Under the pieces are notes generated by a model. It had not been told where the DNA came from and made no database searches. It worked only from the letters and a program-made list of their open reading frames with translations. Made by a program: the position numbers and the translations under genes. A stretch of DNA of 64,000 nucleotides from Actinomycetota bacterium (GTDB lineage Bacteria > Actinomycetota > AC-67). This document shows positions 12,597 to 41,097 of the stretch, in pieces. Location: positions 20,838-84,837 of the forward strand of contig JBKHYG010000100.1 of NCBI GenBank assembly GCA_046565595.1. The letters run 5' to 3'. The first letter of the stretch is position 1. Every line of letters starts with the position of its first letter.

Positions 12597-12669
12597 GGCC
12601 AGGTAGCTCAGTTGGCAGAGCACGGGTCTGAAGTACCCGGTGTCGGCGGTTCGATTCCGTCCCTGGCCA
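12597..12669 (+). tRNA. tRNA-Phe (anticodon GAA)
   Basis: Acceptor GGCCAGG/CCTGGCC, D arm GCTC-AGTTGGCA-GAGC, anticodon stem CGGGT/ACCCG loop CTGAAGT, T arm GGCGG-TTCGATT-CCGTC, discriminator A. Confidence 0.9.
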
Positions 12670-23780: not shown

Positions 23781-25730
23781 TCAGTCGTCGGGACCCTTGG
23801 CTGCCCGCTCGGCGATCTCGGCGACGATCCCTGGGTCTGCCAGCGTGGTGACATCTCCCAGGGCCCGTTCTTCGGCCACATCACGCAAGAGTCGGCGCAT
23901 GATCTTTCCGCTACGGGTCTTGGGTAGATCAGGGGTGAACATCACCTGCGCCGGGCGTGCGATCTTGCCGATCTTGTTCGCGACATGATCGCGAAGCGTT
24001 GCGGTGAGTTCCTCGGAGGGCTCCACCCCGGCCCTCGGGATGACATAGGCGAAGATCGCTTGGCCGGTGAGTTGGTCGGTCTTGCCGACCACCGCTGCCT
24101 CCGCGACGCTCGGGTGATCAACGAGCGCGCTCTCGACCTCGGCTGTCGAGATCCGGTGGCCGCTTACATTCATCACATCGTCTACTCGGCCCATGAACCA
24201 GTAGTCGCCGTCTGCGTCCTGTCTGGTCCCGTCGCCGGGGAAGTAACGGCCGGGGAACTTCGACCAGTAGGTGTCCTTGTAGCGCTCCGGATCTCCCCAG
24301 ATGCCTCGCAACATCGACGGCCACGGATGCGTCAGCGTGATGTAGCCGCCGCCTGTTCCAGGCTCGATCCTGTTGCCGTCGTCGTCGACGATCTCAGCTC
24401 GGATGCCAGGCAACGGCCCGTTACAGCTCCCCGGCTTCAAGGTCGAGATGCCGGGCAGCGGAGAGAGCATGATGCTGCCGGTCTCGGTCTGCCACCATGT
24501 GTCGACGATCGGACACCGCGAACCGCCGATGTGTTCGTAGTACCACATCCACGCTTCGGGGTTGATCGGCTCGCCGACGCTTCCAAGGAGACGCAGGCTG
24601 GACAGGTCGTGTTTGGCGGGATACTCGGGCCCCCACTTCATGAAGGCGCGGATGGCGGTGGGTGCGGTGTAGAGGATGGTCGCGCGATACTTCTCGACGA
24701 TCGACCAGAAACGATCCTTGTCGGGGAAGTCAGGTGTTCCTTCGTAGAGGATGCCGGTCGTGTGGTTGGCGAGCGGACCGTAGACGATGTAGGTGTGCCC
24801 GGTGACCCATCCGCAGTCGGCGGCGCACCAGTAGATGTCGTCGGGCTTGATGTCGAAGACGAGCCTGTGAGTGGTAGCCGCTCCGACCAGATACCCGCCG
24901 GTTGTATGCAAGATGCCCTTGGGTTTGGCGGTCGTTCCGCTCGTGTAGAGGATGTAGAGCGGATCCTCTGAGTCCATGATCTCGGGTTCGCAGGTGTCGG
25001 GCTGTTCAGCGACCAGATCGTGGTACCAGTGGTCGCGTTCGCCGTTCCACTTGATCTCTTGGCCGGTACGTCGAACGACGATGCAATGCTTGATCGAGTC
25101 CGAACTGTCGCACGCTTCGTCAGCCGACGGTTTCAACGGCGTGATCTGACCACGCCGATTGCCTCCGTCGGCTGTGATACACGCGACCGCCTCTGCATCT
25201 TGGATCCGGTCAGCCAGAGCGTCCGCGCTGAAGCCGCCGAAGACAACCGAGTGGATCGCTCCGATCCGGGCGCATGCAAGCATGGAGATCGGTAGCTCTG
25301 GGATCATCGGCAGATAGATCGCGACGCGATCCCCCTTCTCGACGCCGAGCGCTCTGAGCGCGTTCGCCAGCCGCGATACATCTGCCAAGAGGTCGGTGTA
25401 GGTGATGGTGCGTGTATCGCCCGGCTCGCCTTCGAAGTGGAATGCGACCTTGTCACCGCCGCCGGCCTCCACATGTCTGTCGAGACAGTTCACGGTCACA
25501 TTCAGCTTCCCGTCGATGAACCACTGGGCGAAGGGCTCGTCCCATCCGAGCACCTTCGACCAGGGCTGCATCCAGTCCAATGCTTGGGCTTGCTCTGCCC
25601 ACCAGGCGGGCGGATCGGCGTCAGCCAGCTGGTAGATGCTCGGGTCATTCGCGTTAGCGTGGGCTGCGAAGTCGGGAGGTGGGGGGAAGGTGCGATCTTC
25701 GGTGAACAGTGCGTCGATCCGGTCGGTCAT
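23781..25730 (-). CDS. acs: Acetyl-coenzyme A synthetase (acetate--CoA ligase)
   Basis: 649 aa; AMP-binding motif YTSGTTAKPKG, Acs-specific regions and C-terminal PKTRSGKIMRRLLR. Confidence 0.9.
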   Translation of the reverse strand: MTDRIDALFTEDRTFPPPPDFAAHANANDPSIYQLADADPPAWWAEQAQALDWMQPWSKVLGWDEPFAQWFIDGKLNVTVNCLDRHVEAGGGDKVAFHFEGEPGDTRTITYTDLLADVSRLANALRALGVEKGDRVAIYLPMIPELPISMLACARIGAIHSVVFGGFSADALADRIQDAEAVACITADGGNRRGQITPLKPSADEACDSSDSIKHCIVVRRTGQEIKWNGERDHWYHDLVAEQPDTCEPEIMDSEDPLYILYTSGTTAKPKGILHTTGGYLVGAATTHRLVFDIKPDDIYWCAADCGWVTGHTYIVYGPLANHTTGILYEGTPDFPDKDRFWSIVEKYRATILYTAPTAIRAFMKWGPEYPAKHDLSSLRLLGSVGEPINPEAWMWYYEHIGGSRCPIVDTWWQTETGSIMLSPLPGISTLKPGSCNGPLPGIRAEIVDDDGNRIEPGTGGGYITLTHPWPSMLRGIWGDPERYKDTYWSKFPGRYFPGDGTRQDADGDYWFMGRVDDVMNVSGHRISTAEVESALVDHPSVAEAAVVGKTDQLTGQAIFAYVIPRAGVEPSEELTATLRDHVANKIGKIARPAQVMFTPDLPKTRSGKIMRRLLRDVAEERALGDVTTLADPGIVAEIAERAAKGPDD

Positions 25731-25970: not shown

Positions 25971-28157
25971 TCAGTTGGTAGTTCGATCGAACAGGCGACC
26001 GAACGCGTCGCGATGTGCGCGCGTCATCTCGTCGAGCGCGACAGCGGATGTTCCGAAGTTGAAACTTTCCCCGCCGACCCGTCCGAGGACCCTCGCGGGG
26101 ATGCCTACATCGGCGGCGGCCGTCAGGATCGTCGCTGAGTCCTGCGCGGAGACGATGACACGGCCGGTGGATTCGCTGAAGGCCGCCACATGTTCGGGAA
26201 GTCCCACCACGGAGATATCGACGGTCGCAGCGATCCCGCTTGCGATCGCCATCTCGGCCAATGCCACCAGGAGCCCACCGTCTGAGCAGTCATGGGCAGC
26301 TGTCAACCGGTCTGCCTCATAGAGGTCAGAAAGCAGACCGCAGAGGCGCCTCTCGAGGTCCAGATCCACCTGCGGGGGCATTCCTCCCAGGTGCCCGCGC
26401 GCGACCCAAGCCCATTCGCTACCCCCTAGTTCGGGCCTGGTTTCTCCGAGCAGGACTATCTCGTCGCCCTCCTGCCAGGAGTTGGTCAGCGGCTCGCCTT
26501 CAAGCAGCCCGACCATGCCGATGATCGGGGTCGGATGGATCTGCGTGTCGCCGGTCTGGTTGTAGAAACTCACATTGCCGCCCGTGACCGGTGTCTCGAG
26601 CACGCGGCAGGCCTCGCCGATCCCTTTGACAGCCTCGGCGAACTGCCACATGACCTCTGGATACTCGGGGTTGCCGAAGTTCAGACAGTTGGTGATCGCG
26701 ACGGGGCGCGCTCCGGTACATGCGACATTGCGAGCAGATTCGACGACCGCGAGCATCGCCCCGAGCCTGGGGTCAAGCTGTCCGAAACGGCCGCAACCAT
26801 CCGTAGAGATCGCCATAGCCCGGTCGATACCCTCGATACGGATGACCGCCGCGTCGCCGCCGGCGCTCTGCAGCGTGTTGTGTTGAACGATCTGGTCGTA
26901 CTGTTCGTAGACCCATCCCTTCGAGCAGATGTTTGGGCTCGCGAGTAACTCGAGCAGCGCATCGCCGAGATCCTTCGGCGGCTCGAGCCGCATCGGGTCG
27001 TCCGCCTGCAACGCATCCAGCCAGTCGGGCCGTCGCATCGGCCGTTCGTAGACGGGACCTTCGTCGGCCAGAGAGCGGGCCGGCATGTCTGCGACAACCT
27101 CGCCAGAGTGAGCGATCTTCAGGTTGCCGCCCTCGATGACGGTCGCGACCGGCGCTGCCCACGCTCCCCAACGAGAACAGATCTCCAGCGCCTGGTCCAC
27201 ATCCTCGGGCTTGACGATCGCGAGCATGCGTTCCTGCGATTCGCTCGTCAGGATCTCGAAGGCTTCCATGTCGGCCTCGCGCAATGCGACCGCATCCAGG
27301 TCGACCTCTAGTCCGGTGCCTCCGCGTGAGGCTGTCTCACTGGTCGCGCAGCAGAAGCCGCCCCCGCCCAGATCCTGCAGCCCTACCAACAAGCCGCGGC
27401 GAGCCAGTTCCACAGAAACCTCGATGATGACCTTCTCGGTGAATGGGTCACCGACCTGAACGCTGGGGCGTTTAGCTTCCGCTTCGTCGTCGAACGGCCG
27501 CGATGCCAGGACGCTCACACCTCCGATACCGTCCCGGCCGGTCTTGCTGCCGAACAGGATCGCAACATTGCCTTCGCCCTCTGCGACCGCCCTCTGAACC
27601 TCGTCCAAGCGTCCGACGCCGACGCACATCACATTCACCAGCGGGTTGCCCTGATAGCAGGGATCGAAGCGAAGTTCACCACCGACGGTAGGGATGCCGA
27701 TCGAGTTGCCATACTGGCTGATGCCGTGGACGACGCCTTCGACGAGATGCATCGTGGGGAACTTCGAAGGATCGCCGAACCGCAGCGGATCCAAGAGAGC
27801 AACCGGACGGGCGCCTGCCGAGATGATGTCGCGCACGATCCCGCCGACGCCCGTCGCAGCGCCCTGGACCGGCTCGACGAAAGAGGGGTGGTTGTGCGAC
27901 TCGAGCTTGAAGACCGCGACCATGCCGTCGCCGATGTCGATGATGCCAGCGGATTCGCCAGGGCCCATCACGACGCGCGGACCTTCGGTCGGCAGCGTCT
28001 TCAGGTGCACCTTCGACGACTTGTACGAGCAGTGTTCGCTCCACATAGCGCCATACATCGCGAGTTCGGCAGGTGTCGGTTCGCGGCCGAGCGTGTCGCA
28101 GATGCGGTGGTATTCGTCTTCTGTGAGCGCGAGTGCGAGCGCCTGTTCGACGCTCAT
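25971..28157 (-). CDS. purL: Phosphoribosylformylglycinamidine synthase subunit II
   Basis: 728 aa with duplicated AIRS-like domains; N-terminus MSVEQALALALTEDEYHRICDTLGREPTPAELAMYGAMWSEHCSYKSS is the canonical small-type PurL start. Confidence 0.9.
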   Translation of the reverse strand: MSVEQALALALTEDEYHRICDTLGREPTPAELAMYGAMWSEHCSYKSSKVHLKTLPTEGPRVVMGPGESAGIIDIGDGMVAVFKLESHNHPSFVEPVQGAATGVGGIVRDIISAGARPVALLDPLRFGDPSKFPTMHLVEGVVHGISQYGNSIGIPTVGGELRFDPCYQGNPLVNVMCVGVGRLDEVQRAVAEGEGNVAILFGSKTGRDGIGGVSVLASRPFDDEAEAKRPSVQVGDPFTEKVIIEVSVELARRGLLVGLQDLGGGGFCCATSETASRGGTGLEVDLDAVALREADMEAFEILTSESQERMLAIVKPEDVDQALEICSRWGAWAAPVATVIEGGNLKIAHSGEVVADMPARSLADEGPVYERPMRRPDWLDALQADDPMRLEPPKDLGDALLELLASPNICSKGWVYEQYDQIVQHNTLQSAGGDAAVIRIEGIDRAMAISTDGCGRFGQLDPRLGAMLAVVESARNVACTGARPVAITNCLNFGNPEYPEVMWQFAEAVKGIGEACRVLETPVTGGNVSFYNQTGDTQIHPTPIIGMVGLLEGEPLTNSWQEGDEIVLLGETRPELGGSEWAWVARGHLGGMPPQVDLDLERRLCGLLSDLYEADRLTAAHDCSDGGLLVALAEMAIASGIAATVDISVVGLPEHVAAFSESTGRVIVSAQDSATILTAAADVGIPARVLGRVGGESFNFGTSAVALDEMTRAHRDAFGRLFDRTTN

Positions 28158-28846
28158 GCGTCCACCATCGCGGCGAGCTGCTTCATGACCGCGATCCCGT
28201 CAGTGGTTCGGTATCCGATGCTCGCATCCACGGCGTGCTCGGGATGAGGCATCAACCCAAGGACATTGCCCACCTCATTGCAGACACCCGCGATGTTCTC
28301 GAGCGAACCGTTCGGGTTGATGTCGTCTGTGATCTGCCCGTCGGGCGTGCTGTAGCGCAGCACGATCTGACCGTTGGCCTTCATGGTCTGCAGGGTGTCT
28401 TCGTCAGCGATGTAGCGACCTTCACCGTGTTTGATCGGGATGGTCAGGACGCTGCCGGCCTCTGCGGCGACGCGGGACCGGTTGCCCTGTTCGACGCGCA
28501 CATGGACTGGTCGGCAGATGAACTTCAGGCCCTGGTTCCGCGTCAGCGCGCCGGGCAGGAGGCCCGCCTCGCACAGGATCTGGAAGCCGTTGCAGACGCC
28601 CAGCACCGGCTTGCCTTCGGCGGCCAGTGTTCTTACGGCGTCCATGATCGGCGCGAAGCGAGCGATGGCACCGCAGCGCAGATAGTCGCCGTAGCTGAAA
28701 CCGCCCGGCAGCAGGACGCCCTCGATGCCGTCTAGTGAGGTCTCTTGATGCCAGATCAGTCGCGCGTCCAGACCGATCTGTCCTAGAGCCCAGACCGCGT
28801 CACGGTCATCGTTGCTCCCCGGAAATTGGATGACGCCGATCGTCAT
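28154..28846 (-). CDS. purQ: Phosphoribosylformylglycinamidine synthase subunit I (glutamine amidotransferase)
   Basis: Class I GATase triad context GVCNGFQ, HPE near C-terminus; 4-nt overlap with purL. Confidence 0.9.
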   Translation of the reverse strand: MTIGVIQFPGSNDDRDAVWALGQIGLDARLIWHQETSLDGIEGVLLPGGFSYGDYLRCGAIARFAPIMDAVRTLAAEGKPVLGVCNGFQILCEAGLLPGALTRNQGLKFICRPVHVRVEQGNRSRVAAEAGSVLTIPIKHGEGRYIADEDTLQTMKANGQIVLRYSTPDGQITDDINPNGSLENIAGVCNEVGNVLGLMPHPEHAVDASIGYRTTDGIAVMKQLAAMVDA

Positions 28847-29106
28847 ATGGCCGAGCCTACCGGCGCTCTACGCCGGCGTTTCAACGACTATCGGAGACCT
28901 GATCGGCAGCCCGGACCGAGCGGGATGGGCGAATGGATCTCGATTTCCAAAGATGGGGGAGACTCAACTGGGGCCCCAGGCCGGTTTTCGACCCTCATAC
29001 CGTCGGAATCGCCTACGGGATGACCAGACCCCGCTAAGATGGTTATCAGACTCCACGATGATCGGCTGGGTGAGTCGCCCTTACTGATGGCTGAACCGAA
29101 GCAGCG

Positions 29107-29862
29107 ATGGGTCGGAGGGATGCGCTGAGTCACCCCACAGAACGGAAGCGACAGCCTCCTGCGTCGGAGCCCCCGAAGTTCGCTATGCCTCCGGTGCTTC
29201 GCGGACACGACCTACGCCTGTCGTATGGCAGCACGGTCGCCCTTGCAGGAGCAACAGTGGAGATCCGCCCGGGCGAAGTGGTCGTCCTGACGGGAAAGAG
29301 CGGCTCGGGCAAATCTTCGCTGCTGTATTGCTTGGCGGGCGTGTTGCGGCCCGACGGAGGCCGGTTGATCTACGGCGGCGCATCGATGGTAGACATGTCC
29401 GACGATCAACTTAGCGGCTTGCGCCGACGGGACTTCGGCTTCGTCTTCCAGTTCGGGGAGTTGGTTCCCGAACTAAGCGTGGAGGAGAATGTTGCCCTTC
29501 CCCTCCGGCTGAACCGCACGCCGTCTAGTGAGATCCGGCCGCGGGTGGCGGACCTGCTTGACCGCCTGGGGATCGGGGCGATCGCGAAGAAGCGCACGGG
29601 AGAGGCGTCAGGTGGCCAGGTTCAGCGCGCCGCCGTCGCGCGCGCCCTGATCCATTCCCCGAAGGTCGTGTTCGCAGACGAGCCCACGGGTGCCCTCGAT
29701 ACGGAGAACAGCGCGCTCGTGCTGAACGAGTTCCTCAGGATGGCACGCACGATCGGCTCCGCTGTTGTGATGGTGACGCACGAGACGAATGTCGCGGCGG
29801 TCGGGGACCGCCATCTGTCGGTCATCGACGGAGTCGTTCACGCAACAGCGGGCCCGATGTGA
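29107..29862 (+). CDS. ABC transporter ATP-binding protein (MacB/LolD/FtsE-like)
   Basis: Walker A GKSGSGKSS, Q-loop, ABC signature SGGQVQRAAVARAL, Walker B VVFADEPTGALD; alternative start at 29185 (MPPVLRGHDLRL). Confidence 0.8.
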   Translation: MGRRDALSHPTERKRQPPASEPPKFAMPPVLRGHDLRLSYGSTVALAGATVEIRPGEVVVLTGKSGSGKSSLLYCLAGVLRPDGGRLIYGGASMVDMSDDQLSGLRRRDFGFVFQFGELVPELSVEENVALPLRLNRTPSSEIRPRVADLLDRLGIGAIAKKRTGEASGGQVQRAAVARALIHSPKVVFADEPTGALDTENSALVLNEFLRMARTIGSAVVMVTHETNVAAVGDRHLSVIDGVVHATAGPM

Positions 29863-32201
29863 TCATCGCTCGCCTGGGCGTTCTGTTCCTCCGGGGCAAC
29901 GGTCGGCCTGGAATGGTACGGCTCGCCTTGATGGTGGGCGGCACTACGGTAGGGGTATCGGTCCTGCTGGTTGCGCTCTCGTTCCCAGCCATCTTGGACG
30001 GAAGACAGCAACGCGCTTCAGCACGCTTCCCCCAGGTAGGACAAGAACAGACTGGGACATGGTTTCAGCAACGCTCAACCCTGCTTGGCCAGGGTCGATT
30101 GCGGGAGTTGTTCCTCGCCAATGATGGAACCCCCGCGATACTTCCGCCCGGAGTTTCGACCGTTCCCAAGGTAGGTGAGGCGTATGTGTCGCCTGCTCTG
30201 AGTGAGATCCTGAGTGACGCCCGCGTGAAGGCGAGGTTTCCGTATCGAGCCGCGGGTTTGGTCGGACCGCAAGGCCTGGTATCGCCTGATGAGCTGTACG
30301 CCGTGGTCGGTGCAAAGCGAGCGGAGTTGCCGGCCGGAGGGGCACCGCTGGCGGGATACGGTCTCCGTGGCGGTCAACTCGAAGTCGACATCGCTCAAGG
30401 CGATCTTAGGGTCCTGCAGATCGCGCTCATCGGGTTGGTCGGAGTCCCGCTCGCGGTGTGCTTCGCAGTCATCGCCCGGCTCTCCGCCGCAGCGCGCGAT
30501 CGGCGTTTGGCGGCGCTACGGCTGCTCGGCATGACGCAACGCGACACCCGTCGTGTCAACGCGCTCGAAACCATCCTCGCTGCGTTCGTTGGGGGGCTGG
30601 TAGCCACAGGCGTCTACTCAGTTCTGAACGCCCGACTGGCACGGTCGGGCCTTGGAGGCATCGTGTGGTTCTCGTCCGACTCGGCCCTGAGACCCGGCAT
30701 GGTCGCCATGGCCCTGGTCGGCGTCCCCGTGTTTGCTGCCGTTCTGGGGATCGCCGGGTCGCGATCCGCGGTCCAGAACGCGCTCGCCGTACGGCGCGAG
30801 GCCCCTGCCCGGCGTGCGGGGTGGATACGGCTCGCCCCCCTCGGCGTCGGCATGGCTCTATTGCTCGGCCTGCTGATCGCATCTGCCGATGCACCTGCTG
30901 GCACGGGCCTCAAGGATCCGGCGCCCCTCATCCTGATCCTCGGGGTTCTGCTCGCTGGAGTGGGGCTCGCGTCCGGCTTCGGCGTGCTCGCCTCCGCCGT
31001 GGCGAGGCTGGTCGCGGACCGCGCACGCCGGCTATGGATCATCCTCGGGGCCCGCCGGCTCATGTTCGAGCCCTCCGGTGCCTCCCGAGTCGTCGCCGGA
31101 TTGGTCGTCGTGATCTTTGCTGCCGGATTCTCGACCGGCTTGCAGCGCGACGCTAGGGCGGCGACCTTGCCGCTCGGCAGGTTCGAGTTCTACGAAGTTC
31201 AGGCACGGGAAGTCCCGCGGAGCGCACGGCCCAAACTCCTGAGCCTGCCAGAGATCCGCAGCGCGGTGGCTTCGATCGCCTCGTTCGAACCCCACGATTC
31301 CTCCGGAGATGCTTCGCCCGGAAGTGCCCCGGGCGAAGGACTCGGCGGTCCGGGTGCATCCCAAGGAGGACCACCGGCGCAGTCTGGCATCACAGCGGGC
31401 TTCGGGCGCTGTCAAGATGTGGCCGTGCTGCTGGAACGCCCATTTCCCGAGTGCAAGGACGGCGTCTCGTACCGGATCAGCCTGGACGAAGCAGACGCGA
31501 GGCCACCGGAGGCGGGCAGGCGTTTCCATCTTCCCCTCGACTTCTCTGACGCTCCACGCAGCATCGTCGTCGAAGCTCCGCGCCCCGTGATCGTGCTTCC
31601 CTACGAGGAACTGATCGCCCTTGGCGGCATCAATGTGTTCCTGCCGATCAAGCGACTGCCGGGAGGCCGAGTTCCGGATACTGCTCGCATCGTGCTCGCC
31701 TCGGAAACCAGTATGCGCGCCATCCAGGATGCGGTGACCGCGATCGCTCGCCTCGCGCCCACAGCCCAGATCGGATTCCTCAACGACGATGTGGACACCC
31801 GTCGGCGGTCCGAGGTGTTCCAAGGCTTGCTCGATGTCGCGTTGATGCTAGGAGTCATCGTCGGCATGCTCGCGTTCGTCGTCGCTACCCTCGATCGAGC
31901 TATCGAACGCCGCTCTAACCTCGTATCGCTCGCCATCGTCGGGGTACCTCTCACGACCCTGCGCGCAGCACAGGCATTCCAGGTCACGATCCCGATCGTC
32001 ATCGGAGCAGTGCTGGCGTTGATCGCGGGCAAGATCGCCGAGCAGGTGACCGTAAGCGTCGGCGGTCTAGATAGAAGCGTGCAGTGGGGGAACACCATCG
32101 GTGGCATCGGCTTGGCCCTAATCGCAGTGACTTTGGCTGTGATCGCGACCCTGCCTGCGGTCACCGACCGGATCGATGCCACGCTCATCCGCCGCGATTG
32201 A
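29859..32201 (+). CDS. ABC transporter permease, FtsX family (two FtsX modules, large extracytoplasmic loops)
   Basis: 780 aa, 4-nt overlap with ATPase gene; N-terminal TM, long loops, two 4-TM FtsX-like blocks. Confidence 0.75.
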   Translation: MIIARLGVLFLRGNGRPGMVRLALMVGGTTVGVSVLLVALSFPAILDGRQQRASARFPQVGQEQTGTWFQQRSTLLGQGRLRELFLANDGTPAILPPGVSTVPKVGEAYVSPALSEILSDARVKARFPYRAAGLVGPQGLVSPDELYAVVGAKRAELPAGGAPLAGYGLRGGQLEVDIAQGDLRVLQIALIGLVGVPLAVCFAVIARLSAAARDRRLAALRLLGMTQRDTRRVNALETILAAFVGGLVATGVYSVLNARLARSGLGGIVWFSSDSALRPGMVAMALVGVPVFAAVLGIAGSRSAVQNALAVRREAPARRAGWIRLAPLGVGMALLLGLLIASADAPAGTGLKDPAPLILILGVLLAGVGLASGFGVLASAVARLVADRARRLWIILGARRLMFEPSGASRVVAGLVVVIFAAGFSTGLQRDARAATLPLGRFEFYEVQAREVPRSARPKLLSLPEIRSAVASIASFEPHDSSGDASPGSAPGEGLGGPGASQGGPPAQSGITAGFGRCQDVAVLLERPFPECKDGVSYRISLDEADARPPEAGRRFHLPLDFSDAPRSIVVEAPRPVIVLPYEELIALGGINVFLPIKRLPGGRVPDTARIVLASETSMRAIQDAVTAIARLAPTAQIGFLNDDVDTRRRSEVFQGLLDVALMLGVIVGMLAFVVATLDRAIERRSNLVSLAIVGVPLTTLRAAQAFQVTIPIVIGAVLALIAGKIAEQVTVSVGGLDRSVQWGNTIGGIGLALIAVTLAVIATLPAVTDRIDATLIRRD

Positions 32202-32290
32202 GTCACTCACTGACTCCGTTGACCTCTCAGCTAGGTCATTGCTTGGATTCGTCCTCGCGCGGGATCTGGAAGCGGCTGCGGTTAGGACCG

Positions 32291-32650
32291 TTAGGAGCCG
32301 GACGGAGGTCCTCCGAAGATCGGTGGTCGGCCGTACAAGGTAAACGCTCCTACCACCGTCAACACAACCCCAGCTGCTAACAGGGTCACGCGGGCCGAGA
32401 GACCCCACACGAAGAGGGCAAAGGCGCCCGCGGACATGAGTACCAGGCCGGCCCACGCTCTTCGTCTCGCTCTGGCATCCGAGGGAAATCGGCCACCACG
32501 CCATGGCAAGAGGATCGCCGTCACTAAGGTGAGCGCTGCAGCCAGTCGAGGGCGTCCACTGGCGATCATCGTCACCAGCAGGGCGGCGACCGCCGAACCG
32601 AGCATCAACACCTGATGCCGCTGGGCCCAGCTTCTGAAGTCAGACCACAT
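32291..32650 (-). CDS. Small membrane protein, hypothetical
   Basis: 119 aa, 3-4 predicted TM helices, co-directional with pur genes. Confidence 0.4.
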   Translation of the reverse strand: MWSDFRSWAQRHQVLMLGSAVAALLVTMIASGRPRLAAALTLVTAILLPWRGGRFPSDARARRRAWAGLVLMSAGAFALFVWGLSARVTLLAAGVVLTVVGAFTLYGRPPIFGGPPSGS

Positions 32651-32661
32651 CGAGCGTCTTT

Positions 32662-33465
32662 CTAGGCGAACCCGGCGCCCTCAAGCAAGGCGATCGGGTC
32701 GTTGGATTCGACGATCGCCAAAGCATCCAGGCACCAGCGTTTCCACTCGTCTCGGGGGATGAACTCTCGGCAAGCCTGCAACTCGACCTGCCTCGCCGCA
32801 ACCTCAGCCTCGGCATCAGGCCCTTCGGGCGAGCCAGCGAGGTGGTAGCCCTCGTGTAGGAGCGGAGGCAGCATCTCGATGGGTTCGAGGGCGCGGTCTG
32901 CAAACCGGAAGTTCAGCCAGAGGGTGCCGTCTTCCAGGTTGGCGGTGGATTCGATCCCGGTGCGTTCGAACTGTGCGAACCGCACGGTCGCCTTCCCCAA
33001 GCCTTCGATCGCTTGGCGCATGTCCTGGCTCATACCGGGCCCGATCAGCGTGCACGCCTGTTTCAAAGCCTGATACAACCGCGTGAGTCCGTCACCACTC
33101 ATCACCCAGCGGGTACCCGAGAGTTCCTCGCAGGGTGCTTCGGCCTCGGGGACGGTCTCTGGCGGCGGCACGGGCACCACTCGGATCGGATCGTGACTGA
33201 AACCATCAGCTGGCGCGGGACGACGCTCCTGCAGCGGAACGGTTACGAAGTCGCTGGGGCGGATCAGCAGCCAGCCGGTCGCGACGATGGCTACCAGAGC
33301 AAGGGTGGCGAACGAGATCAGCAGGCCCCGCGGCATCGCCTGCCGGATCGGCAGATCGATCGGTTGCTTCGAGCCCGTCGGACGGGTGGTCGCTGCGTCC
33401 GCCGGACGGGTGGCCGCTGCGTCCGTCGGACGGTCGCGCCCCGGGTCAGGTCGGTGGTCGCTCAA
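32662..33465 (-). CDS. Membrane-anchored hypothetical protein with N-terminal 8-aa tandem repeats; start (TTG) overlaps purS stop
   Basis: 267 aa; N-terminal RPTDAAATRPADAATTRP repeats, one TM (LLISFATLALVAIVATGWLLI), extracytoplasmic C-terminal domain; GC3 of N-terminal region about 80% supports coding; TTGA start/stop overlap with purS. Confidence 0.5.
   Translation of the reverse strand: MSDHRPDPGRDRPTDAAATRPADAATTRPTGSKQPIDLPIRQAMPRGLLISFATLALVAIVATGWLLIRPSDFVTVPLQERRPAPADGFSHDPIRVVPVPPPETVPEAEAPCEELSGTRWVMSGDGLTRLYQALKQACTLIGPGMSQDMRQAIEGLGKATVRFAQFERTGIESTANLEDGTLWLNFRFADRALEPIEMLPPLLHEGYHLAGSPEGPDAEAEVAARQVELQACREFIPRDEWKRWCLDALAIVESNDPIALLEGAGFA
33377..33433. repeat. Tandem 24-bp direct repeat (2.4 copies), in frame within 5' end of CDS 32662..33465
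   Basis: GTCGGACGGGTGGTCGCTGCGTCC / GCCGGACGGGTGGCCGCTGCGTCC / GTCGGACGG. Confidence 0.7.
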
Positions 33466-33710
33466 TCCTCGAGGCTGTAGGTGAAATCTTCGATCACAGG
33501 GTTGCTGAGCAGTTTCTGGCTCATCTGTTCAACCTGCTCTCGAACGGCCTGCTCGTCAGGTCCCTCGATCTCGAACTCGATGTGTTTGCCGATGCGGACA
33601 CCGCTCACGCCTTCGAATCCCAGCGAAGGCAGGTTGTCCTCGACGGTCTTGCCTTGCGGGTCCAGGATCCCGTCGCGCAGCATCACATCGATCGAGACCC
33701 GGAACTTCAA
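33462..33710 (-). CDS. purS: Phosphoribosylformylglycinamidine synthase subunit PurS
   Basis: 82 aa; MKFRVSIDVMLRDGILDPQGKTVEDNLPSLGFEGVSGVRIGKHIEFEIEG matches the PurS fold consensus. Confidence 0.85.
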   Translation of the reverse strand: MKFRVSIDVMLRDGILDPQGKTVEDNLPSLGFEGVSGVRIGKHIEFEIEGPDEQAVREQVEQMSQKLLSNPVIEDFTYSLED

Positions 33711-34582
33711 CTAGCCCACTCCTCGAAGCGCTTTCCGGTGATGCGCTCGTAAGCCTCGATGTACTTGGCACGCGTGTTGGCGACGACATCGTCTGGAAGT
33801 TCGGGGCCGGGCGGGTTGTGGTCCCAACCGGTCGAGTCCAGCCAATCGCGAACATATTGCTTGTCGAAACTCGGGACGCTCTCTCCGGGGACGACCTGAT
33901 CGGCTGGCCAGAACCTCGACGAGTCGGGCGTCAACGCCTCATCGCACAGCACGATCTTGCCGTCGATGATCCCGAACTCGAACTTGGTGTCGGCGAGGAC
34001 GATGCCGCGCTGTTCGGCGAGCGCGGCGGCACGCGTGTAGAGCGTCAGCGAGAAGTCGCGCAGTTGCTCCATCGTCTCGCGGCCCGCGATCTCGCAGGCC
34101 TTCTCGAAGTCGATGTTCTCGTCGTGACCGACCTCGGCCTTGGTCGAAGGAGTGAAGATCGGTTCCGGCAACTGCTCCGACTCTTGCAGGCCTTCGGGCA
34201 GCGGGATGCCGCAGACCGCGCCGGTCTTGCCGTACTCCTTCCAGCCAGAGCCTGTGATGTAGCCGCGGACGACGCACTCGATCGGAACGATCTTGGCTTC
34301 GTGCACGAACATCGTTCGGCCGCGCAGAGCGTCGGCGTGCTCTTTGGCTTCGGCCGGGAAGTCATCCGGGTTCGTCGAGATGAGGTGGTTGCCGACCACA
34401 TCGGCTAGTTCTTCGAACCAGAAGATGCTGGTGCCGGTCAGCACCTTGCCCTTGTCTGGGATGTCAGTGGGAAGCACGACATCGAACGCGCTGATGCGGT
34501 CGGTGGCCACCATCAGGATGCCGCCGTCTACCTTGTAGAGGTCGCGGACCTTGCCGCTCTTGATCTTGTTGAGACCGTCCAT
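33707..34582 (-). CDS. purC: Phosphoribosylaminoimidazole-succinocarboxamide synthase (SAICAR synthetase)
   Basis: Start at ATG 34582 (MDGLNKIKSGKVRDLY); track ORF to 35059 is an extension overlapping the next gene; 4-nt overlap with purS. Confidence 0.9.
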   Translation of the reverse strand: MDGLNKIKSGKVRDLYKVDGGILMVATDRISAFDVVLPTDIPDKGKVLTGTSIFWFEELADVVGNHLISTNPDDFPAEAKEHADALRGRTMFVHEAKIVPIECVVRGYITGSGWKEYGKTGAVCGIPLPEGLQESEQLPEPIFTPSTKAEVGHDENIDFEKACEIAGRETMEQLRDFSLTLYTRAAALAEQRGIVLADTKFEFGIIDGKIVLCDEALTPDSSRFWPADQVVPGESVPSFDKQYVRDWLDSTGWDHNPPGPELPDDVVANTRAKYIEAYERITGKRFEEWAS

Positions 34583-34607: not shown

Positions 34608-35798
34608 TCAAGGCAGTTGAGACAGGAATGTCTTTGCCGGGACGACCACCGGCCTGGTCTGATCGAAGGGATCGGCCGCCACGAAAGGCATGTCCAACAC
34701 GATCTGGAACGCATGAGGCGCAGCGAGTTTCTGCGCCATCTCGGAGAGAACCCCGGACAGGTCACGGGCGCCCATCTTCGCCTCGACGAGGATCCAGGGA
34801 TCGCCATCTCGGACGACCACGAAGTCGACCTCGTTACCTTCCCGGTCTCGGATCCAACGCAGATCGAAGTCGCCGGCCCCGACATCCGTCCACAGATCGC
34901 AGGTCTTCTTGAGGGCGCAGGCCACGAGGTTCTCGAACCTCGCGGCAGGGTCGGGTACCTGAGAGTGATCCCACAGGTAGTACTTGGGTTGCTTGCGGAG
35001 TGCGCGGGCGATGTTGCGGAACCAGGGTCGCACTTCGAAGAGGTGATACAGCGAGGCAAGCGTCTCTAGCCACCTGGCAACGGTGTCGGGACTGACCGCA
35101 AGGTCCTGTGCAAGTCCCCTGTGCGGGGCCCCGCCGCCGACCCTGGACCGGACGAGGTCTGCGAGCCCGAGGACACCGTCGATCTCGCGCACCGAAGTCA
35201 GGTCTCGTAGTTCCTCGCGCAGAAGTTGGCTGCGTCGGGCGTTCACCCAACGACGATGGAAGGACGCCTCTCCCCTTGCCAATGGTTCAGGGAAGCCTGA
35301 GAAACGCAGCAGATCCTCGAGGCCGACCTGGCCTTCAGCAGGGGGACGGTGCAGCCCTGTCTCGAGATACGCAGGATCTGTCGTCTCCCCAAGGCTGAGC
35401 GGATGCATCCGGTACGAGAAGTACCTGCCAACCAACGCATCTCCCGCGTGCGAGAACACATCGAGACGAGCGCTGCCGGTAGCCAGCACTCTCGGCTCGT
35501 AGGCGTCGAACACCGACTTCAACAGATCCCGCCATCCTCCGAACCGATGGATCTCATCCAGCACTAGGCGATGTGGCTCGTCGACGAGTTGATCGAGACC
35601 GGCCGCCTCTGCGACCTTGCGCGGGCCTTGGACCAAGATGGCGCGATCCTCGGGCCGATCCCACGAGAGGTAGCGACCGCCCAATGCCTTCGCCACCGTG
35701 GACTTGCCTACTTGGCGCGGGCCCGACAGGAACGCCATCTGACGCTCGCGGGCTAGATGTATTTCCAGGATCGCCTGGTACCGTCTGGGAAACACCAT
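34608..35798 (-). CDS. AAA+ superfamily ATPase, COG1373 family (AAA_14 + DUF4143)
   Basis: Walker A GPRQVGKST, Walker B LVLDEIH; C-terminal DUF4143-like region (YLWDHSQVPDPAARFENLVACAL...EVDFVV). Confidence 0.75.
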   Translation of the reverse strand: MVFPRRYQAILEIHLARERQMAFLSGPRQVGKSTVAKALGGRYLSWDRPEDRAILVQGPRKVAEAAGLDQLVDEPHRLVLDEIHRFGGWRDLLKSVFDAYEPRVLATGSARLDVFSHAGDALVGRYFSYRMHPLSLGETTDPAYLETGLHRPPAEGQVGLEDLLRFSGFPEPLARGEASFHRRWVNARRSQLLREELRDLTSVREIDGVLGLADLVRSRVGGGAPHRGLAQDLAVSPDTVARWLETLASLYHLFEVRPWFRNIARALRKQPKYYLWDHSQVPDPAARFENLVACALKKTCDLWTDVGAGDFDLRWIRDREGNEVDFVVVRDGDPWILVEAKMGARDLSGVLSEMAQKLAAPHAFQIVLDMPFVAADPFDQTRPVVVPAKTFLSQLP

Positions 35799-35847: not shown

Positions 35848-37146
35848 TTAGATCGCTTCGAGGCGTTTGAAGACCCGGTCGATGTGGGCCAGGTAGCGGT
35901 CGGGATCCATCAGCGCGTCCAACTTGGCGGCATCGGTCACGGCCTTCACGCTGTCTTGTTCCAGCAGGGTGTCCCGGAACGGGATCCCCTGATCCCAGGT
36001 CTTCATCGCCGCGACCTGGACTGCCGCGTACGCATCCTCGCGACTCATGCCAGCCTCGACGAGAGCCAGCAGGATGTGCGCAGAGTAAACAAGGCCGTTG
36101 GTCGCATCCAGGTTCTGGCGCATCCGCTCGGGGAAGACCCTCATCCCGTCGATGACGCGGATCATCAGGTGCAATTGGTAGTCGAGAGCGATGGTGGCGT
36201 CCGGGAGGATGACGCGCTCGACGCTGGAGTGTGAGATGTCGCGCTCGTGCCAGAGCGCATTGTTCTCGAGCGCCGGGTTCAGGTAGCCGCGGATCAGCCG
36301 GGCGAGGCCCGTGATGCGTTCGCACAGGATGGGGTTCTTCTTGTGCGGCATCGCACTCGAACCCTTCTGACCCTTGCCGAAAGGCTCTTCAGCTTCACGG
36401 ACCTCGGTGCGCTGAAGGTGCCGGATCTCTATCGAGATCTTCTCGCAGGTGCTGGCTGTGATCGCGCACGCCGACAGTAGCTCCGCGATGCGGTCGCGTT
36501 GAACGACCTGCGTGACCGCAGGCGCAGGAGTGAGGCCGAGACCGGCGCACACATGCTGCTCGACCGCTGGGTCGATGCTTGCATAAGTGCCGACAGGTCC
36601 GGCGACCTTGCCGACCGCAACAGCCTCGCGCGCACGGCGGAGCCGTTCCAGATCGCGCGCAACCTCGAACGCGTAGACCGCGAGTTTCAGGCCGAAGGTG
36701 GTCGGCTCGGCGTGGATCCCGTGGCTGCGGCCCACGCACACCGTGTCCTTGAACTCCAGCGCTCGACGCTTCAAGGACTCGAGCAAGGTCTCGACGCGGC
36801 CGATCAACAGATCGGTCGCTGTCATCAGTTGGACGCCGAGCGTCGTGTCCAGCAGATCGTTGCTGGTCATCCCGTGATGGATCCAACGGCTCGCAGGGCC
36901 GATGGGTTCGCCGAGTGCGGTGAGGAACGCGATCACATCGTGTTGTGTGACCTCTTCGATCTCGAAGACGCGTTCGGGTGTCGGCGCGACGGCTTTGGCT
37001 CTGATCGTGTCGAAGTCTTCCTGCGGCACGACGCCGAGTTTGACCCACGCTTCGGTGGCGAGCAGTTCGACCTCGGTGAAGATCTCGTATCTGCGAGCGT
37101 CACTCCAGACGCTCGCCATCTCTGGCAGCGAGTAGCGAGGGATCAA
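35848..37146 (-). CDS. purB: Adenylosuccinate lyase
   Basis: 432 aa; fumarate lyase signature region GSSAMPHKKNP. Confidence 0.9.
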   Translation of the reverse strand: MIPRYSLPEMASVWSDARRYEIFTEVELLATEAWVKLGVVPQEDFDTIRAKAVAPTPERVFEIEEVTQHDVIAFLTALGEPIGPASRWIHHGMTSNDLLDTTLGVQLMTATDLLIGRVETLLESLKRRALEFKDTVCVGRSHGIHAEPTTFGLKLAVYAFEVARDLERLRRAREAVAVGKVAGPVGTYASIDPAVEQHVCAGLGLTPAPAVTQVVQRDRIAELLSACAITASTCEKISIEIRHLQRTEVREAEEPFGKGQKGSSAMPHKKNPILCERITGLARLIRGYLNPALENNALWHERDISHSSVERVILPDATIALDYQLHLMIRVIDGMRVFPERMRQNLDATNGLVYSAHILLALVEAGMSREDAYAAVQVAAMKTWDQGIPFRDTLLEQDSVKAVTDAAKLDALMDPDRYLAHIDRVFKRLEAI

Positions 37147-37601
37147 AGTCTGGCCCCGTCGGCCATCTCCTGTTTGAAGGCGTCGAGTTTCTTGGCGAGT
37201 TCCTCATCGCCAACGGCGAGGATCTGAACGGCGAGCAGACCTGCGTTCTTGGCGCCATCGACCGCTACGGTCGCGACCGGAACCCCCGGCGGCATCTGCA
37301 CGATCGCCAGCAGAGCGTCCATCGCGTCAGCCAATCCGCCCGAGAGTGGCACGCCGATGACTGGCAGAGTGGTGAATGCCGCGGTTACGCCCGGAAGGTG
37401 GGCAGCCATTCCCGCGCCCGCGATGATGCATCCCAGACCGCGGTCCTTCGCGCTGGTTACATACTCGCGCACCCGCTCGGGTCGGCGATGCGCGCTCATC
37501 GACTCGTTCTCCCACTCGACGCCGAACCTGTCGAGGACTTCGCCGGCCTTCAACATGGTCTTCTCGTCGCTTGGCGACCCGTAGATGATCCCGACCTTCA
37601 T
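37143..37601 (-). CDS. purE: N5-carboxyaminoimidazole ribonucleotide mutase
   Basis: MKVGIIYGSPSDEKTM...IIAGAGMAAHLPGV matches the PurE consensus; 4-nt overlap with purB; no purK in window. Confidence 0.85.
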   Translation of the reverse strand: MKVGIIYGSPSDEKTMLKAGEVLDRFGVEWENESMSAHRRPERVREYVTSAKDRGLGCIIAGAGMAAHLPGVTAAFTTLPVIGVPLSGGLADAMDALLAIVQMPPGVPVATVAVDGAKNAGLLAVQILAVGDEELAKKLDAFKQEMADGARL

Positions 37602-37716: not shown

Positions 37717-38556
37717 GTGATGCGAATGAGAGTTTCGAGGATCGTCCCGGTCACTGCTGCCCTGCTCATGTGGCTGCCCCTACCTGCCCACCCATCCGAG
37801 ACCCCCAGAGATGCGATCAGCTCCCAGGTGCTCGTCGCCACCGGAACGGTCAGTCAGGATGCCTTCACATATGACATCGAGTGCACAGCTGGAGCAGTTG
37901 CTCCCGTCGATGCGCTGTTTGGCGTAGGTCGCAACGACCGCAGCCTCTGGTACGGAACCCTGGACACCGTAATCGGCAAGGAGACCACCGGAGACTCCGT
38001 CGCCATATTGGGCCAGGATCAGAGACAGGGAACCCGGGAGGTGACCCGGACCTCAGATCGGATCCAAACGCTCGCCATCTCAAGCACCGAGAGCAATGAG
38101 GTTGTCATCGGTCAACGGCCGATCGACATCGTGCTAGTGGTTGCGCCGATCGAGGGAACCTTCGAAACCTGCTCGATATCGATGGACAGTGAGCCATTGG
38201 TGGTCCGGAGTCTCCCTGAGGCTTCCGCCGGATATGTAGATCTCGGCGGGGCGGACCGCAATGCTGCGTGGATCCAGAACGACGCCGGAGCCTTCGGATA
38301 CGGGACCTCGGAGAGTGTGCAGGTTGGCGGCGGACCCTTCTTCGCCAGTTGCAAGATCTATGGCTCCGCGCTGATACAAGCCACCGTCTTCGGAACCTCG
38401 AGTATCGATCCCATACCGGCGACACCGATCCGTTCGGAACGGTGCGGTGGAGACGGCTTGGGTGGCAGCTTCGCGGGCAGGATCGACCTCTTCGGGACCG
38501 TCAACGAGGCTGGGGCACCCAGTACCTTCCACTGGGTCTCGCTGGTCGGCTACTGA
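37717..38556 (+). CDS. Secreted hypothetical protein
   Basis: Signal peptide MMRMRVSRIVPVTAALLMWLPLPAHP; Gly/Ser/Thr-rich mature region; no motif recognized; sits between purE and purD on the opposite strand. Confidence 0.5.
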   Translation: MMRMRVSRIVPVTAALLMWLPLPAHPSETPRDAISSQVLVATGTVSQDAFTYDIECTAGAVAPVDALFGVGRNDRSLWYGTLDTVIGKETTGDSVAILGQDQRQGTREVTRTSDRIQTLAISSTESNEVVIGQRPIDIVLVVAPIEGTFETCSISMDSEPLVVRSLPEASAGYVDLGGADRNAAWIQNDAGAFGYGTSESVQVGGGPFFASCKIYGSALIQATVFGTSSIDPIPATPIRSERCGGDGLGGSFAGRIDLFGTVNEAGAPSTFHWVSLVGY

Positions 38557-38557: not shown

Positions 38558-39823
38558 CTACCGGCCCGAGGCGATATCGGTTCGGTTCATCTTGCCTTCG
38601 AAGCGGATCAGGTCAGCGGCCTCGTAGGCCTTGGCGCGCGCGTCTGCCACGCTGTTCCCTAGAGCGCTGACGGCCAGCACCCTGCCGCCGGCGGTCACCA
38701 AGGTGCCGTCGTCGGCACCCTTGGTCCCGGCGTGGAAGACGATCACATCGCCCAGCGCCTCGGCGTCTTCGATACCGGTGATCGGCTTGCCGGTCTCATA
38801 GGTGCCTGGGTAGCCGCCACTTGCGAGCACGACGGTCACGCAAGCTCGGTCGCTGGCTCTCAGGCCGCTCGCGTCCAGCCGGCCGTTCGCCGCGGACAAC
38901 AGCACCTTGCCGAGGTCCCCCTCGATGCGCGGCAAGACGACCTCGGTCTCGGGGTCGCCGAAGCGGCAGTTGAACTCGACGGTGCTTGGCTCACCGTCGC
39001 CGTCGATCATCAGGCCTGCGTAGAGCAGACCGATGAAGGGCGTTCCGTCGTTGCGCATCTGATCGATGACGGGCTGACAGATCCGCTCCACAGCAGACTC
39101 GATCCCTTCGGCCAGATGAGGAACCGGCGAGTACGCGCCCATGCCGCCGGTGTTCGGGCCTTGGTCGCCGTCGTGCGCGCGTTTGAAGTCCTGAGCGCCG
39201 ACCAGAGGGAACAGGCGCGCGCCGTCGGAGATGCAGAACAGCGACGCCTCTTCTCCGACCAGCAGATCTTCGAGCACGACCCGAGAGCCCGCCTTTCCGA
39301 AGGCGTCGTCCTCCATGCATGCGCGGATCGCGGCCTCCGCGGTGGCGGTGTCCATCGCGACCGTAACACCCTTGCCGGCCGCCAGTCCGTCAGCCTTCAC
39401 CACGATTGGTGCGCCTCGATCTGCCAGCGCCTTCAGAGCTTCATCGAGGCTGGTGCAGGTGACCGACGCCGCTGTAGGCACTCCCGCACGAGCCATCACC
39501 TCTTTGGCAAAGGTCTTGGATCCTTCGAGTTCGGCAGCAGCCGCGGAAGGCCCGAAGACGGCGATCCCCTTCGCGCGCACCGCATCGGCGACGCCCGCAA
39601 CCAGCGGTGCTTCAGGTCCGACGATGACCAGATCGACCGAATGTTGATCCGCGAGCGAGGCCACCGCGTCCGGATCATCAGCCTTGACTGCCACACACTC
39701 GGCGAGTTGCCCGATCCCCGGATTGCCTGGCGCAGCGATGATCTTCGAGACCGAGTCTGAGCGGGACAGCGACCATGCGAGGGCGTGTTCGCGGCCGCCG
39801 GACCCGATCAAGAGGATCCTCAT
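38558..39823 (-). CDS. purD: Phosphoribosylamine--glycine ligase
   Basis: Start at ATG 39823 (MRILLIGSGGREHALAWSL); ATP-grasp domain throughout. Confidence 0.9.
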   Translation of the reverse strand: MRILLIGSGGREHALAWSLSRSDSVSKIIAAPGNPGIGQLAECVAVKADDPDAVASLADQHSVDLVIVGPEAPLVAGVADAVRAKGIAVFGPSAAAAELEGSKTFAKEVMARAGVPTAASVTCTSLDEALKALADRGAPIVVKADGLAAGKGVTVAMDTATAEAAIRACMEDDAFGKAGSRVVLEDLLVGEEASLFCISDGARLFPLVGAQDFKRAHDGDQGPNTGGMGAYSPVPHLAEGIESAVERICQPVIDQMRNDGTPFIGLLYAGLMIDGDGEPSTVEFNCRFGDPETEVVLPRIEGDLGKVLLSAANGRLDASGLRASDRACVTVVLASGGYPGTYETGKPITGIEDAEALGDVIVFHAGTKGADDGTLVTAGGRVLAVSALGNSVADARAKAYEAADLIRFEGKMNRTDIASGR

Positions 39824-41097
39824 GCATCCACCACGATGGTCTGCTCGCGCGCCGGGCCCACGCCGATCCATGCGACCGGGGTGCCGGTCAGTTCCTCGAC
39901 GCGTTCGATGTATCGGCGCGCCTCCTTCGGGAGATCACCCAACTTCTCGCAGCCTGAGAGGTCCTCGGTCCAGCCGGGCAGTTCCTCGTAGACGGGCTTG
40001 GCGTGATGGAACAGCGTTTGGTTCGGGGGTAGCTGTTCGTACCGTTCGCCGTCACTGTCGTATGCCGTCGAGATCTTTACGGGATCCAGTCCACTCAGCA
40101 CATCGAGTTTGGTCAGGAAGATCTTCGACATCGAGTTCACTCGGACGGCGTAACGAAGTTGGACGGCGTCCAACCATCCGCAGCGACGCTTGCGACCCGT
40201 CGTCACACCGAACTCCGCACCCACCCGACCCAAGTGCTCACCGATGCCGTCCTCGAGTTCGGTCGGGAAGGGGCCTGCGCCGACACGCGTCGTGTAAGCC
40301 TTGACCAGTCCGACCACTTCGTCGATGAAACGCGGTCCGATCCCCGTGCCCGTGCAAGCACCACCTGCAGACGGTGACGAGGAAGTCACGAACGGGTAGG
40401 TGCCTTGGTCCAGATCGAGCATCGTGCCCTGCGCGCCCTCGAACAGCACCGACCCGCCGGAGGTCAAGCATCGGTGAACCAGGGCTCCTGTGTCCGCGAT
40501 GTGTGGCCGGAGCCGCTCGGCGAACGCCGAGTAAGCGTCGATGATCTCGCCGCCATCCATGCCGAGGCGGTTGTAGATCCGCGCGAGGACCGCGTTCTTC
40601 TCCTTCAGGTTGATCTGCAACTTCTGCTCGAAGATCTTCAGATCCAGGAGGTCCTGGACGCGCAGACCGATCCGTGCGGCCTTGTCCGCGTATGCGGGAC
40701 CGATGCCCTTCTTCGTGGTTCCCAGTTGTGCGCGCCCAAGGAATCGTTCGCTTACAGCATCGAGGGCACGGTGATACGGCATGATGAGGTGCGCGTTGCC
40801 ACTGACCTTCAGCCGTTCGGTCGAGATGCCTTGCTCACCAAGCATGTCCATCTCTTCCAGCAGGGCTTCCGGGTCGATGACCAACCCGTCGCCCAGCATC
40901 GGGATGGGCCGCTCGTGTAACACCGAAGACGGGATCAGGTGGAGGGCCAGTTTCACATCGCCAGCGATGACGGTGTGCCCCGCGTTGTTACCGCCCTGAT
41001 AGCGGATGACGATGTCCGAGTGCGGGGCCAGCTGATCTATCGCTCGGCCCTTGCCTTCGTCTCCCCATTGGGCGCCGACGAGCACTGTCGCGGGCAT
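39820..41097 (-). CDS. purA: Adenylosuccinate synthetase
   Basis: N-terminal GAQWGDEGKGRAID P-loop, GNNAGHTV; 4-nt overlap with purD. Confidence 0.9.
   Translation of the reverse strand: MPATVLVGAQWGDEGKGRAIDQLAPHSDIVIRYQGGNNAGHTVIAGDVKLALHLIPSSVLHERPIPMLGDGLVIDPEALLEEMDMLGEQGISTERLKVSGNAHLIMPYHRALDAVSERFLGRAQLGTTKKGIGPAYADKAARIGLRVQDLLDLKIFEQKLQINLKEKNAVLARIYNRLGMDGGEIIDAYSAFAERLRPHIADTGALVHRCLTSGGSVLFEGAQGTMLDLDQGTYPFVTSSSPSAGGACTGTGIGPRFIDEVVGLVKAYTTRVGAGPFPTELEDGIGEHLGRVGAEFGVTTGRKRRCGWLDAVQLRYAVRVNSMSKIFLTKLDVLSGLDPVKISTAYDSDGERYEQLPPNQTLFHHAKPVYEELPGWTEDLSGCEKLGDLPKEARRYIERVEELTGTPVAWIGVGPAREQTIVVDA

Follow-up and report, generated by a model that had tools for sequence, protein, structure and literature searches.

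We analysed a stretch of 64 000 nucleotides from an Actinomycetota genome (contig JBKHYG010000100.1 of assembly GCA_046565595.1; the whole stretch is called the window below), in which the genes for formylglycinamidine ribonucleotide (FGAM) synthetase, purS, purQ and purL, are all present in one orientation and the purS stop lies 4.6 kb from the purQ start. In Bacillus subtilis, the gene order is purC-purS-purQ-purL and PurS, PurL and PurQ form the FGAM synthetase complex. The window holds the same genes, co-oriented, with 4-nt overlaps between native pur neighbours (purE/purB, purC/purS and purS/X, the latter two as TTGA, and purQ/purL). It differs in that an extra, non-enzymatic membrane-protein gene, here called X, stands between purS and purQ throughout its lineage, and in that the window adds a further 3.8 kb, comprising a small membrane-protein gene and an ATP-binding cassette (ABC) transporter pair. 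The gene order and coordinates are those of the original prediction, made from the DNA alone, which read the locus as a purine operon split by a transporter and two membrane proteins. On balance, we favour an account in which the gap reflects two separate events of very different age, one for X and one for the transporter cassette. The features concerned are as follows.

33707-34582, minus strand: purC, phosphoribosylaminoimidazole succinocarboxamide (SAICAR) synthetase, 291 aa (PF01259, E 1.5e-75; length from alignment to the purC of the related locus L003)
33462-33710, minus strand: purS, FGAM synthetase small subunit (PF02700, E 1e-30)
32662-33465, minus strand: X, 267-aa single-pass membrane protein with a predicted zincin-like domain
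33375-33433, minus strand: 24-nt tandem repeat in X, 2.5 copies (Tandem Repeats Finder, score 104)
33262-33327, minus strand: transmembrane helix of X, approximately residues 47-68 (Kyte-Doolittle peak 50-68; AlphaFold2 helix 46-67)
32842-32856, minus strand: HEGYH of X (H204-E205-x-x-H208), predicted active-site helix (sequence and alignment A1)
28866-32667: 3.8-kb segment with the small membrane-protein gene and the ABC pair, absent from L003 (blastn break points)
32291-32650, minus strand: small membrane protein, 119-aa open reading frame (ORF)
29859-32201, plus strand: 780-aa FtsX permease with two FtsX regions (PF02687, E 2.4e-7, two stretches)
29107-29862, plus strand: ABC ATPase, 251 aa (PF00005, E 2e-29)
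29050-29087, plus strand: remnant, the last ~12 codons (...IGWVSRPY*), of a 150-aa gene, seen by comparison with the related locus L030
28854-28859, minus strand: TAGGCT, a -10-like hexamer (TANNNT) 7 nt before the purQ ATG, candidate promoter
28154-28846, minus strand: purQ, FGAM synthetase glutaminase subunit (PF13507, E 7e-45)
25971-28157, minus strand: purL, FGAM synthetase large subunit (ORF and identity to related loci)

All pur genes of the window lie on the minus strand; the ABC pair is convergent with the 119-aa gene and divergent from purQ. PurS is 89% identical to that of L003, and PurL shares 51-80% identity with segments of related loci where the gene calls are FGAR-AT_linker, AIRS and AIRS_C. 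The inserted genes are unremarkable in base composition compared with their neighbours.

X and its place behind purS

The very sequence of X is on record from a metagenome-assembled 'Actinomycetota bacterium'. A first search among 5.8 billion proteins gave 11 homologues of X, a profile search of cluster representatives gave 64 representatives, and a profile search of a large protein database raised the family to at least 259 proteins, nearly all of 240-290 aa. They come from uncultured Actinomycetota, several of the genomes being labelled Nitriliruptorales or Nitriliruptoraceae, and many of the loci have contig names (SL_*_SED, SL_*_BRINE) that suggest saline-lake sediment and brine. X itself had no Pfam or NCBIfam match at E ≤ 0.01, 41 family members scanned at E ≤ 1 yielded scattered single matches only, and comparison with the sequences in the PDB gave nothing beyond hydrophobic-segment noise. 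A search of the literature on purS, purQ and Nitriliruptor found nothing about a gene between purS and purQ.

Neighbourhood loci (L numbers) were fetched by X homology alone, and PurC, PurS, PurQ and PurL were then located in them by tblastn; a genome scan with alignment A1 reached only three genomes. In every one of the 27 loci with upstream DNA, purS lies immediately upstream of X on the same strand, down to X identities of approximately 28%, and one more contig, known from gene calls only, also has purS directly before X. Two loci (L004 and L006) begin inside X and fall outside this count, and three pairs of loci are duplicates (L007/L008, L009/L010 and L012/L013), leaving approximately two dozen independent cases. 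Two apparent PurS-X fusion proteins (P0061 and P0062) proved to be frameshifted sequence and show adjacency only. The gene before purS, on the other hand, varies: it may be purC, a pirin gene, an uncharacterized gene beside thiC, a gene of the major facilitator superfamily (MFS), or an uncharacterized gene beside a LytR-family gene.

On the other side of X, purQ usually follows directly in relatives, and other lineages have an MFS gene, a 266-aa gene or nothing at the X-purQ junction. In one sub-clade with soda-lake-type sample names (L007, L019, L021 and L024), the order is purS-X-MFS-purQ and the MFS gene overlaps the stop of X; the copies in L007 (6762-8108 of that locus) and L024 are 66% identical orthologues. 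The best family matches of the MFS genes after X are weak ones to multidrug-efflux-type models, with a very weak match (E 0.003) to PunC, a purine nucleoside transporter. We considered whether X has a recurrent partner in a common MFS transporter and rejected the idea, as the MFS gene of L009 is unrelated to that of L007, which points to an insertion in one sub-clade. The 266-aa gene at the X-purQ junction of L009 is likewise unrelated. The purS-X pair is thus an invariant unit, the X-purQ junction is the site where insertions pile up, and X is an old resident of the purine operon. Universality of the arrangement among relatives, which the original prediction thought would make it an ordinary lineage feature, holds for purS-X and fails for the split by the ABC genes. 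As a separate observation, the gene past X in L002 (8123-8914, beyond a 50-aa call on the opposite strand) is not purQ; its product has a signal-like N-terminus and a Thr/Pro-rich tail, and matches the ice-binding protein model NF045625 with E 3e-33, below the cut-off.

The start codon of X, TTG or GTG, overlaps the purS TGA, as TTGA in the window and GTGA in L001, L002 and L003, while in L005 the purS TAG is followed directly by an X ATG. None of these X starts has a properly spaced Shine-Dalgarno sequence before it. Because start and stop overlap without a Shine-Dalgarno, X is likely to be translated by ribosomes that re-initiate after purS, and would hence be made together with PurS. M44, which is invariant in the window's clade, is an alternative candidate start. 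However, the motif TGSKQPI that precedes it is kept as protein while its codons vary synonymously, which argues that the N-terminal tail is translated. The tail also contains the 8-aa tandem repeats noted in the original prediction. These are real, the 24-nt unit encoding RPTDAAAT/RPADAATT, although the expansion is confined to the window genome and is gapped in all 10 homologues of alignment A1. The ratio of non-synonymous to synonymous substitution rates (dN/dS) for X is 0.10 against L003 and 0.25 against L002, compared with 0.12 and 0.13 for purS; X is therefore under purifying selection, at a level similar to that of purS.

Predicted fold and topology of X

The ectodomain of the 267-aa protein had been proposed for structure prediction, and modelling with AlphaFold2 returned a zincin fold. 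The model of X (11-sequence alignment) has a mean predicted local distance difference test (pLDDT) score of 80.9, with most of the C-terminal domain above 90; a second model, of the distant member P0120 (36-sequence alignment), has a mean of 90.9. Both models show a disordered tail, one long helix and a structured segment with an invariant ERRP, followed by a helix, three strands and two further helices. As modelled, this C-terminal domain has the fold of zincins, the HExxH metalloproteases, with HEGYH on a predicted helix (residues 195-211) and E228, 20 residues past H208, on another (218-235). The gap of 20 residues from second His to Glu is the thermolysin spacing. A Foldseek comparison of the X model with the PDB gave no significant match.

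The closest known proteins are the zincin/gluzincin metallopeptidases of clan MA (Wss1/WLM, deuterolysin M35, lugdulysin M30, the catalytic domains of M1 aminopeptidases, and the minigluzincins). With these, X shares in prediction the backing helix, the three-stranded sheet, the HExxH helix and the Glu helix 20 residues after the second His. It differs from them in having no sequence match to known families, in an N-terminal anchor, ERRP and four invariant cysteines, and in that the metal ligands are mostly lost. Among 160 full-length members, 30 (that of the window included) have HExxH..E, 33 have HExxH..Q and 55 have HQxxL..Q; the second His is kept in 67 and the Glu of HExxH in 82, while the third-ligand position is Gln in 105. 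What is invariant in the same 160 proteins is R81-R82, the four cysteines and a C-terminal Gly. Judged by motif loss, the family looks mostly non-catalytic, with most members seemingly dead, whereas the window's clade, which keeps HExxH plus Glu, could be an active protease. Since most of the family has lost the catalytic residues, the function that its members share is more likely to be binding or scaffolding at the envelope than catalysis.

The cysteines bear on topology. Exactly four, all invariant, are present in 159 of the 160 members, spaced C-25-C and C-12-C (C112-C138 and C232-C245), and a single extra cysteine occurs in 40 829 residues. Five neighbouring cytoplasmic enzymes, by comparison, contain 1.2-2.2% cysteine, and the 82-aa PurS has none. 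Avoidance of unpaired cysteines is a known mark of exported, disulfide-bonded proteins of Actinomycetota. On the strength of this four-cysteine pattern, the zincin-like domain probably lies outside the membrane with the short N-terminal tail inside, and we propose that the external domain is held by two disulfides.

The cassette between X and purQ

The closest relative with the X-purQ junction on its contig is L003 (X 86% identical at the amino acid level), which has the order purE-purB-purC-purS-X-purQ with an X-purQ spacer of 34 nt. In the blastn comparison, the window matches L003 as far as 32668 and again from 28865, which is 19 nt short of the purQ ATG. Both ABC genes and the small membrane-protein gene are missing from L003 and from every more distant relative examined, whereas in L030 the X junction is occupied by this module as well, with 92% nucleotide identity, and L032 belongs to the same population as the window (99.97% identity). 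It is very probable that the 3.8-kb cassette inserted between X and purQ once the window's lineage had separated from that of L003. Found only in the window genome and one close relative, it is apparently harmless. The alternative put forward in the original prediction, a tolerated insertion, describes the ABC genes and the small membrane-protein gene well; its treatment of the two membrane proteins as one unit with purS does not hold, as X is ancient at the site and the 104/119-aa gene came with the cassette.

Synonymous divergence (dS) within the cassette is uneven. Against L030, the ABC genes (window 29107-32201 compared with L030 529-3605) have a dS of 0.15-0.19 and the adjacent small membrane-protein gene 0.83; purQ is 84% identical at the nucleotide level. 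The ABC values, far below that of the flanking small gene, suggest a more recent exchange between lineages for the cassette core than for its flanks. In L030 (4310-5113), the first ~42 codons of purQ are joined in frame to the C-terminal ~170 aa of an ISL3-family transposase (PF01610, E 2e-43), which would be either a disruption mediated by an insertion sequence or a chimeric assembly.

How purQ-purL might stay expressed downstream of the cassette is suggested by the purQ start region. The window (TAGGCT), L001 (TAGGAT), L003 (TAGGCT) and L006 (TACACT) each have a TANNNT hexamer 7-8 nt ahead of the purQ start, and none of these four purQ genes has a Shine-Dalgarno sequence before the start, whereas loci of other clades mostly have one of AGGAGG type. 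In mycobacteria, a -10 element this near to the start codon is the arrangement of leaderless genes. We infer that purQ-purL in the window's clade carried a candidate leaderless promoter of their own before the insertion, and the cassette may have been tolerated because this promoter-like -10 lies just downstream of the insertion point. A terminator scan of the region found terminator-like sites at or below shuffled expectation, and in the convergent gap (32196-32296) the hairpin was no better than in shuffled sequence on either strand.

The ABC ATPase overlaps the permease start by 4 nt. Its homologues are called as 245 aa (L030) and 201 aa (L032), and its true start may be an internal Met. 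The best NCBIfam models for the ATPase are LolD, FtsE, the lactococcin-972-group exporter, DevA and MacB, all below their cut-offs (162.7 bits against 264.85 for the FtsE model TIGR02673, and 145.7 against 966 for the MacB model NF007826). By hydropathy, the permease has approximately 10 hydrophobic segments, with a large loop after the first and another before the last three; its dN/dS against L030 is 0.17. The transporter resembles MacB, LolCDE and FtsEX in its FtsX regions and its LolD/FtsE/MacB-type ATPase scores. MacB, however, combines in one polypeptide an ATPase and a permease of four helices with a single periplasmic domain, while the window has a separate ATPase and a 780-aa permease with two large loops; and FtsX has ~300 aa and four helices, against 780 aa and two FtsX regions here. 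These comparisons place the transporter within the MacB/Lol/FtsEX superfamily, as neither MacB nor FtsEX, so the earlier label 'MacB-type' is apt at the superfamily level only, and the suggestion that the pair activates a cell-wall hydrolase finds no support. We take long double-FtsX permeases of the YbbP or BceB kind to be closest to it; the genes near the ABC pair gave no match to families of two-component systems or adaptor proteins.

The small membrane protein has three hydrophobic segments and only two homologues, in L032 and L030 (65% amino acid identity to the latter), with a dN/dS of 0.29 against L030. Its ORF starts 11 nt past the X stop, so the translational coupling to purS claimed for both membrane proteins applies to X, through the TTGA overlap, and not to the 119-aa ORF. 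In both homologues the gene call begins at M16 (window 32605) and gives 104 aa. The 45 nt before that start (32606-32650, minus strand) are 96% identical to L030, compared with 65% for the gene body as protein; either the 119-aa start is real and the segment strongly constrained, or the segment is a conserved leader.

In L030, a 150-aa gene, reduced to the remnant at 29050-29087 in the window, is intact upstream of the ATPase. Its product has a hydrophobic, signal-like N-terminus and no Pfam match. As the ABC pair adjoins this signal-bearing small-protein gene, export of, or immunity to, a small secreted protein offers a lead to the role of the cassette, and nothing firmer. A link to bacteriocins was considered and not sustained, the lactococcin-972-group model scoring about as LolD and FtsE do. 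We saw no link between the ABC cassette and purine metabolism.

Readings of the purS-X pair and the wider cluster

The account that we favour would run as follows. X, a lineage-specific membrane protein, would have settled long ago behind purS, where it is made by re-initiation from the purS stop. Its C-terminal zincin-fold domain would sit outside the cytoplasmic membrane, stapled by disulfides and mostly non-catalytic across the family, and X would have been kept behind purS mainly since it has no translation or expression signal of its own. The 3.8-kb cassette would have entered the X-purQ spacer later, harmlessly given the promoter-like element of purQ-purL. That X performs an envelope job merely co-expressed with purine synthesis has, in our estimation, about an even chance of being right.

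Several points weigh against this account. No promoters emerged in the region from a generic sigma-70 scan, and co-transcription, the coupling of X to purS and the purQ promoter are all read from sequence alone. The purS-X linkage, unbroken to approximately 28% identity while purC, purL and all other neighbours vary, exceeds the expectation for simple hitch-hiking and leaves room for a real functional tie to PurS. The topology, too, is undecided by charge: within 15 residues of the X helix there are on average 1.4 Lys and Arg on its N-terminal side against 2.6 on its C-terminal side. Part of the latter count is the invariant RR, placed by the model in a segment of high confidence (pLDDT ~88-91).

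One form that such a tie might take is that X is a partner of FGAM synthetase, its cytoplasmic tail binding PurS and, through PurS, also PurL-PurQ, so that X tethers or regulates the complex at the membrane. We think this unlikely. It would account for the 27 of 27 adjacency while all else around the pair changes, and the stop/start overlap implies linked synthesis, which would explain a one-to-one ratio of X to PurS. The tail would share a compartment with PurS, and the part of it by the helix is among the most conserved parts of X within clades, with TGSKQPI..P..AMP invariant in alignment A1 and G-LP-LP-GEP..RWF in alignment A3. Between clades, however, these motifs are wholly different while PurS stays 45-50% identical, a poor fit to a single PurS interface. 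The cysteine-stapled domain, which probably lies outside the cell, is the biggest part of X and the best conserved, and no true PurS-X fusion was found, the two candidates being frameshifts. Taken further, X could be a fourth PurS-PurL-PurQ component in Nitriliruptoria-like Actinomycetota, serving as membrane anchor or as regulator and produced in concert with PurS; X would then place or gate FGAM synthetase at the membrane, possibly answering a ligand of the external zincin-like domain. We regard this extended proposal as quite unlikely.

The higher Lys and Arg count on the C side of the helix, together with the acidic N-terminal tails of the soda-lake clade, would suit the opposite orientation (N-out, C-in), with the C-terminal domain cytoplasmic, the four cysteines binding metal, and the domain acting on or sensing a cytoplasmic component of purine synthesis. 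This we consider very unlikely, as the near absence of extra cysteines is the pattern of an oxidizing compartment, the cysteine spacing is not that of CxxC knuckles, and the invariant RR is not in a disordered membrane-adjacent stretch.

A single envelope/export system, made up of the ABC transporter and both membrane proteins and tied to purine metabolism, is already contradicted by synteny and is extremely improbable: all of these genes do lie between purS and purQ, and transporter genes do recur at the junction (the MFS genes of another clade), but the ABC pair and small protein are confined as described above and the pair is on the strand opposite to the pur genes, the module in L030 is accompanied by a transposase fragment and a secreted-protein gene, the dS values point to separate exchange of the cassette core, and the MFS genes of L007 and L009 are unrelated. 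The functional link between an envelope or export function and purine metabolism suggested in the original prediction could thus apply to X, by its purS adjacency, and not to the ABC pair or the small protein; adjacency in itself is no proof.

That the ABC cassette splits the operon is a matter of ordinary genome turnover, of little weight. What is worth keeping is a compact, unannotated family whose gene is fixed between those for two subunits of an essential enzyme of purine synthesis, throughout a deep lineage of actinobacteria; gene placement this strict is among the better genomic predictors of a functional tie. Were the tie real, X would be a rare membrane protein attached to bacterial de novo purine synthesis; were it not, X would be a clean case of a gene held by translational coupling alone, and also of a protease fold turned mostly non-catalytic. 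Purine genes are scattered in other Actinomycetota, Mycobacterium tuberculosis purQ and purL being many genes apart. The window resembles these genomes in that its cluster is interrupted by unrelated genes, and differs in that the interposed X is fixed across a deep lineage.

The remaining genes of the cluster and other features of the window are listed below.

39820-41097, minus strand: purA
38558-39871, minus strand: purD
37717-38556, plus strand: 279-aa ORF between purD and purE, without a Pfam match
37143-37601, minus strand: purE
35848-37146, minus strand: purB
34608-35798, minus strand: AAA_14/DUF4143 ATPase, 396 aa, between purB and purC
23781-25730, minus strand: acs
2560-2632, 8841-8913, 11748-11822, 12597-12669 and 61796-61866: five tRNA genes (Rfam)

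An Rfam scan of the whole window found only these five tRNAs, all away from the region, and no riboswitch near the pur genes. The pur cluster is broken at three junctions: between purD and purE by the 279-aa ORF, between purB and purC by the AAA_14/DUF4143 gene, and between X and purQ by the cassette. As purB and purC are only 44 nt apart in L003, the AAA_14/DUF4143 gene is a second insertion in the pur cluster of the window, which is in this sense permissive to insertions. Beside purE, L003 has a 269-aa gene call on the minus strand, and the blastn match to the window extends into it.

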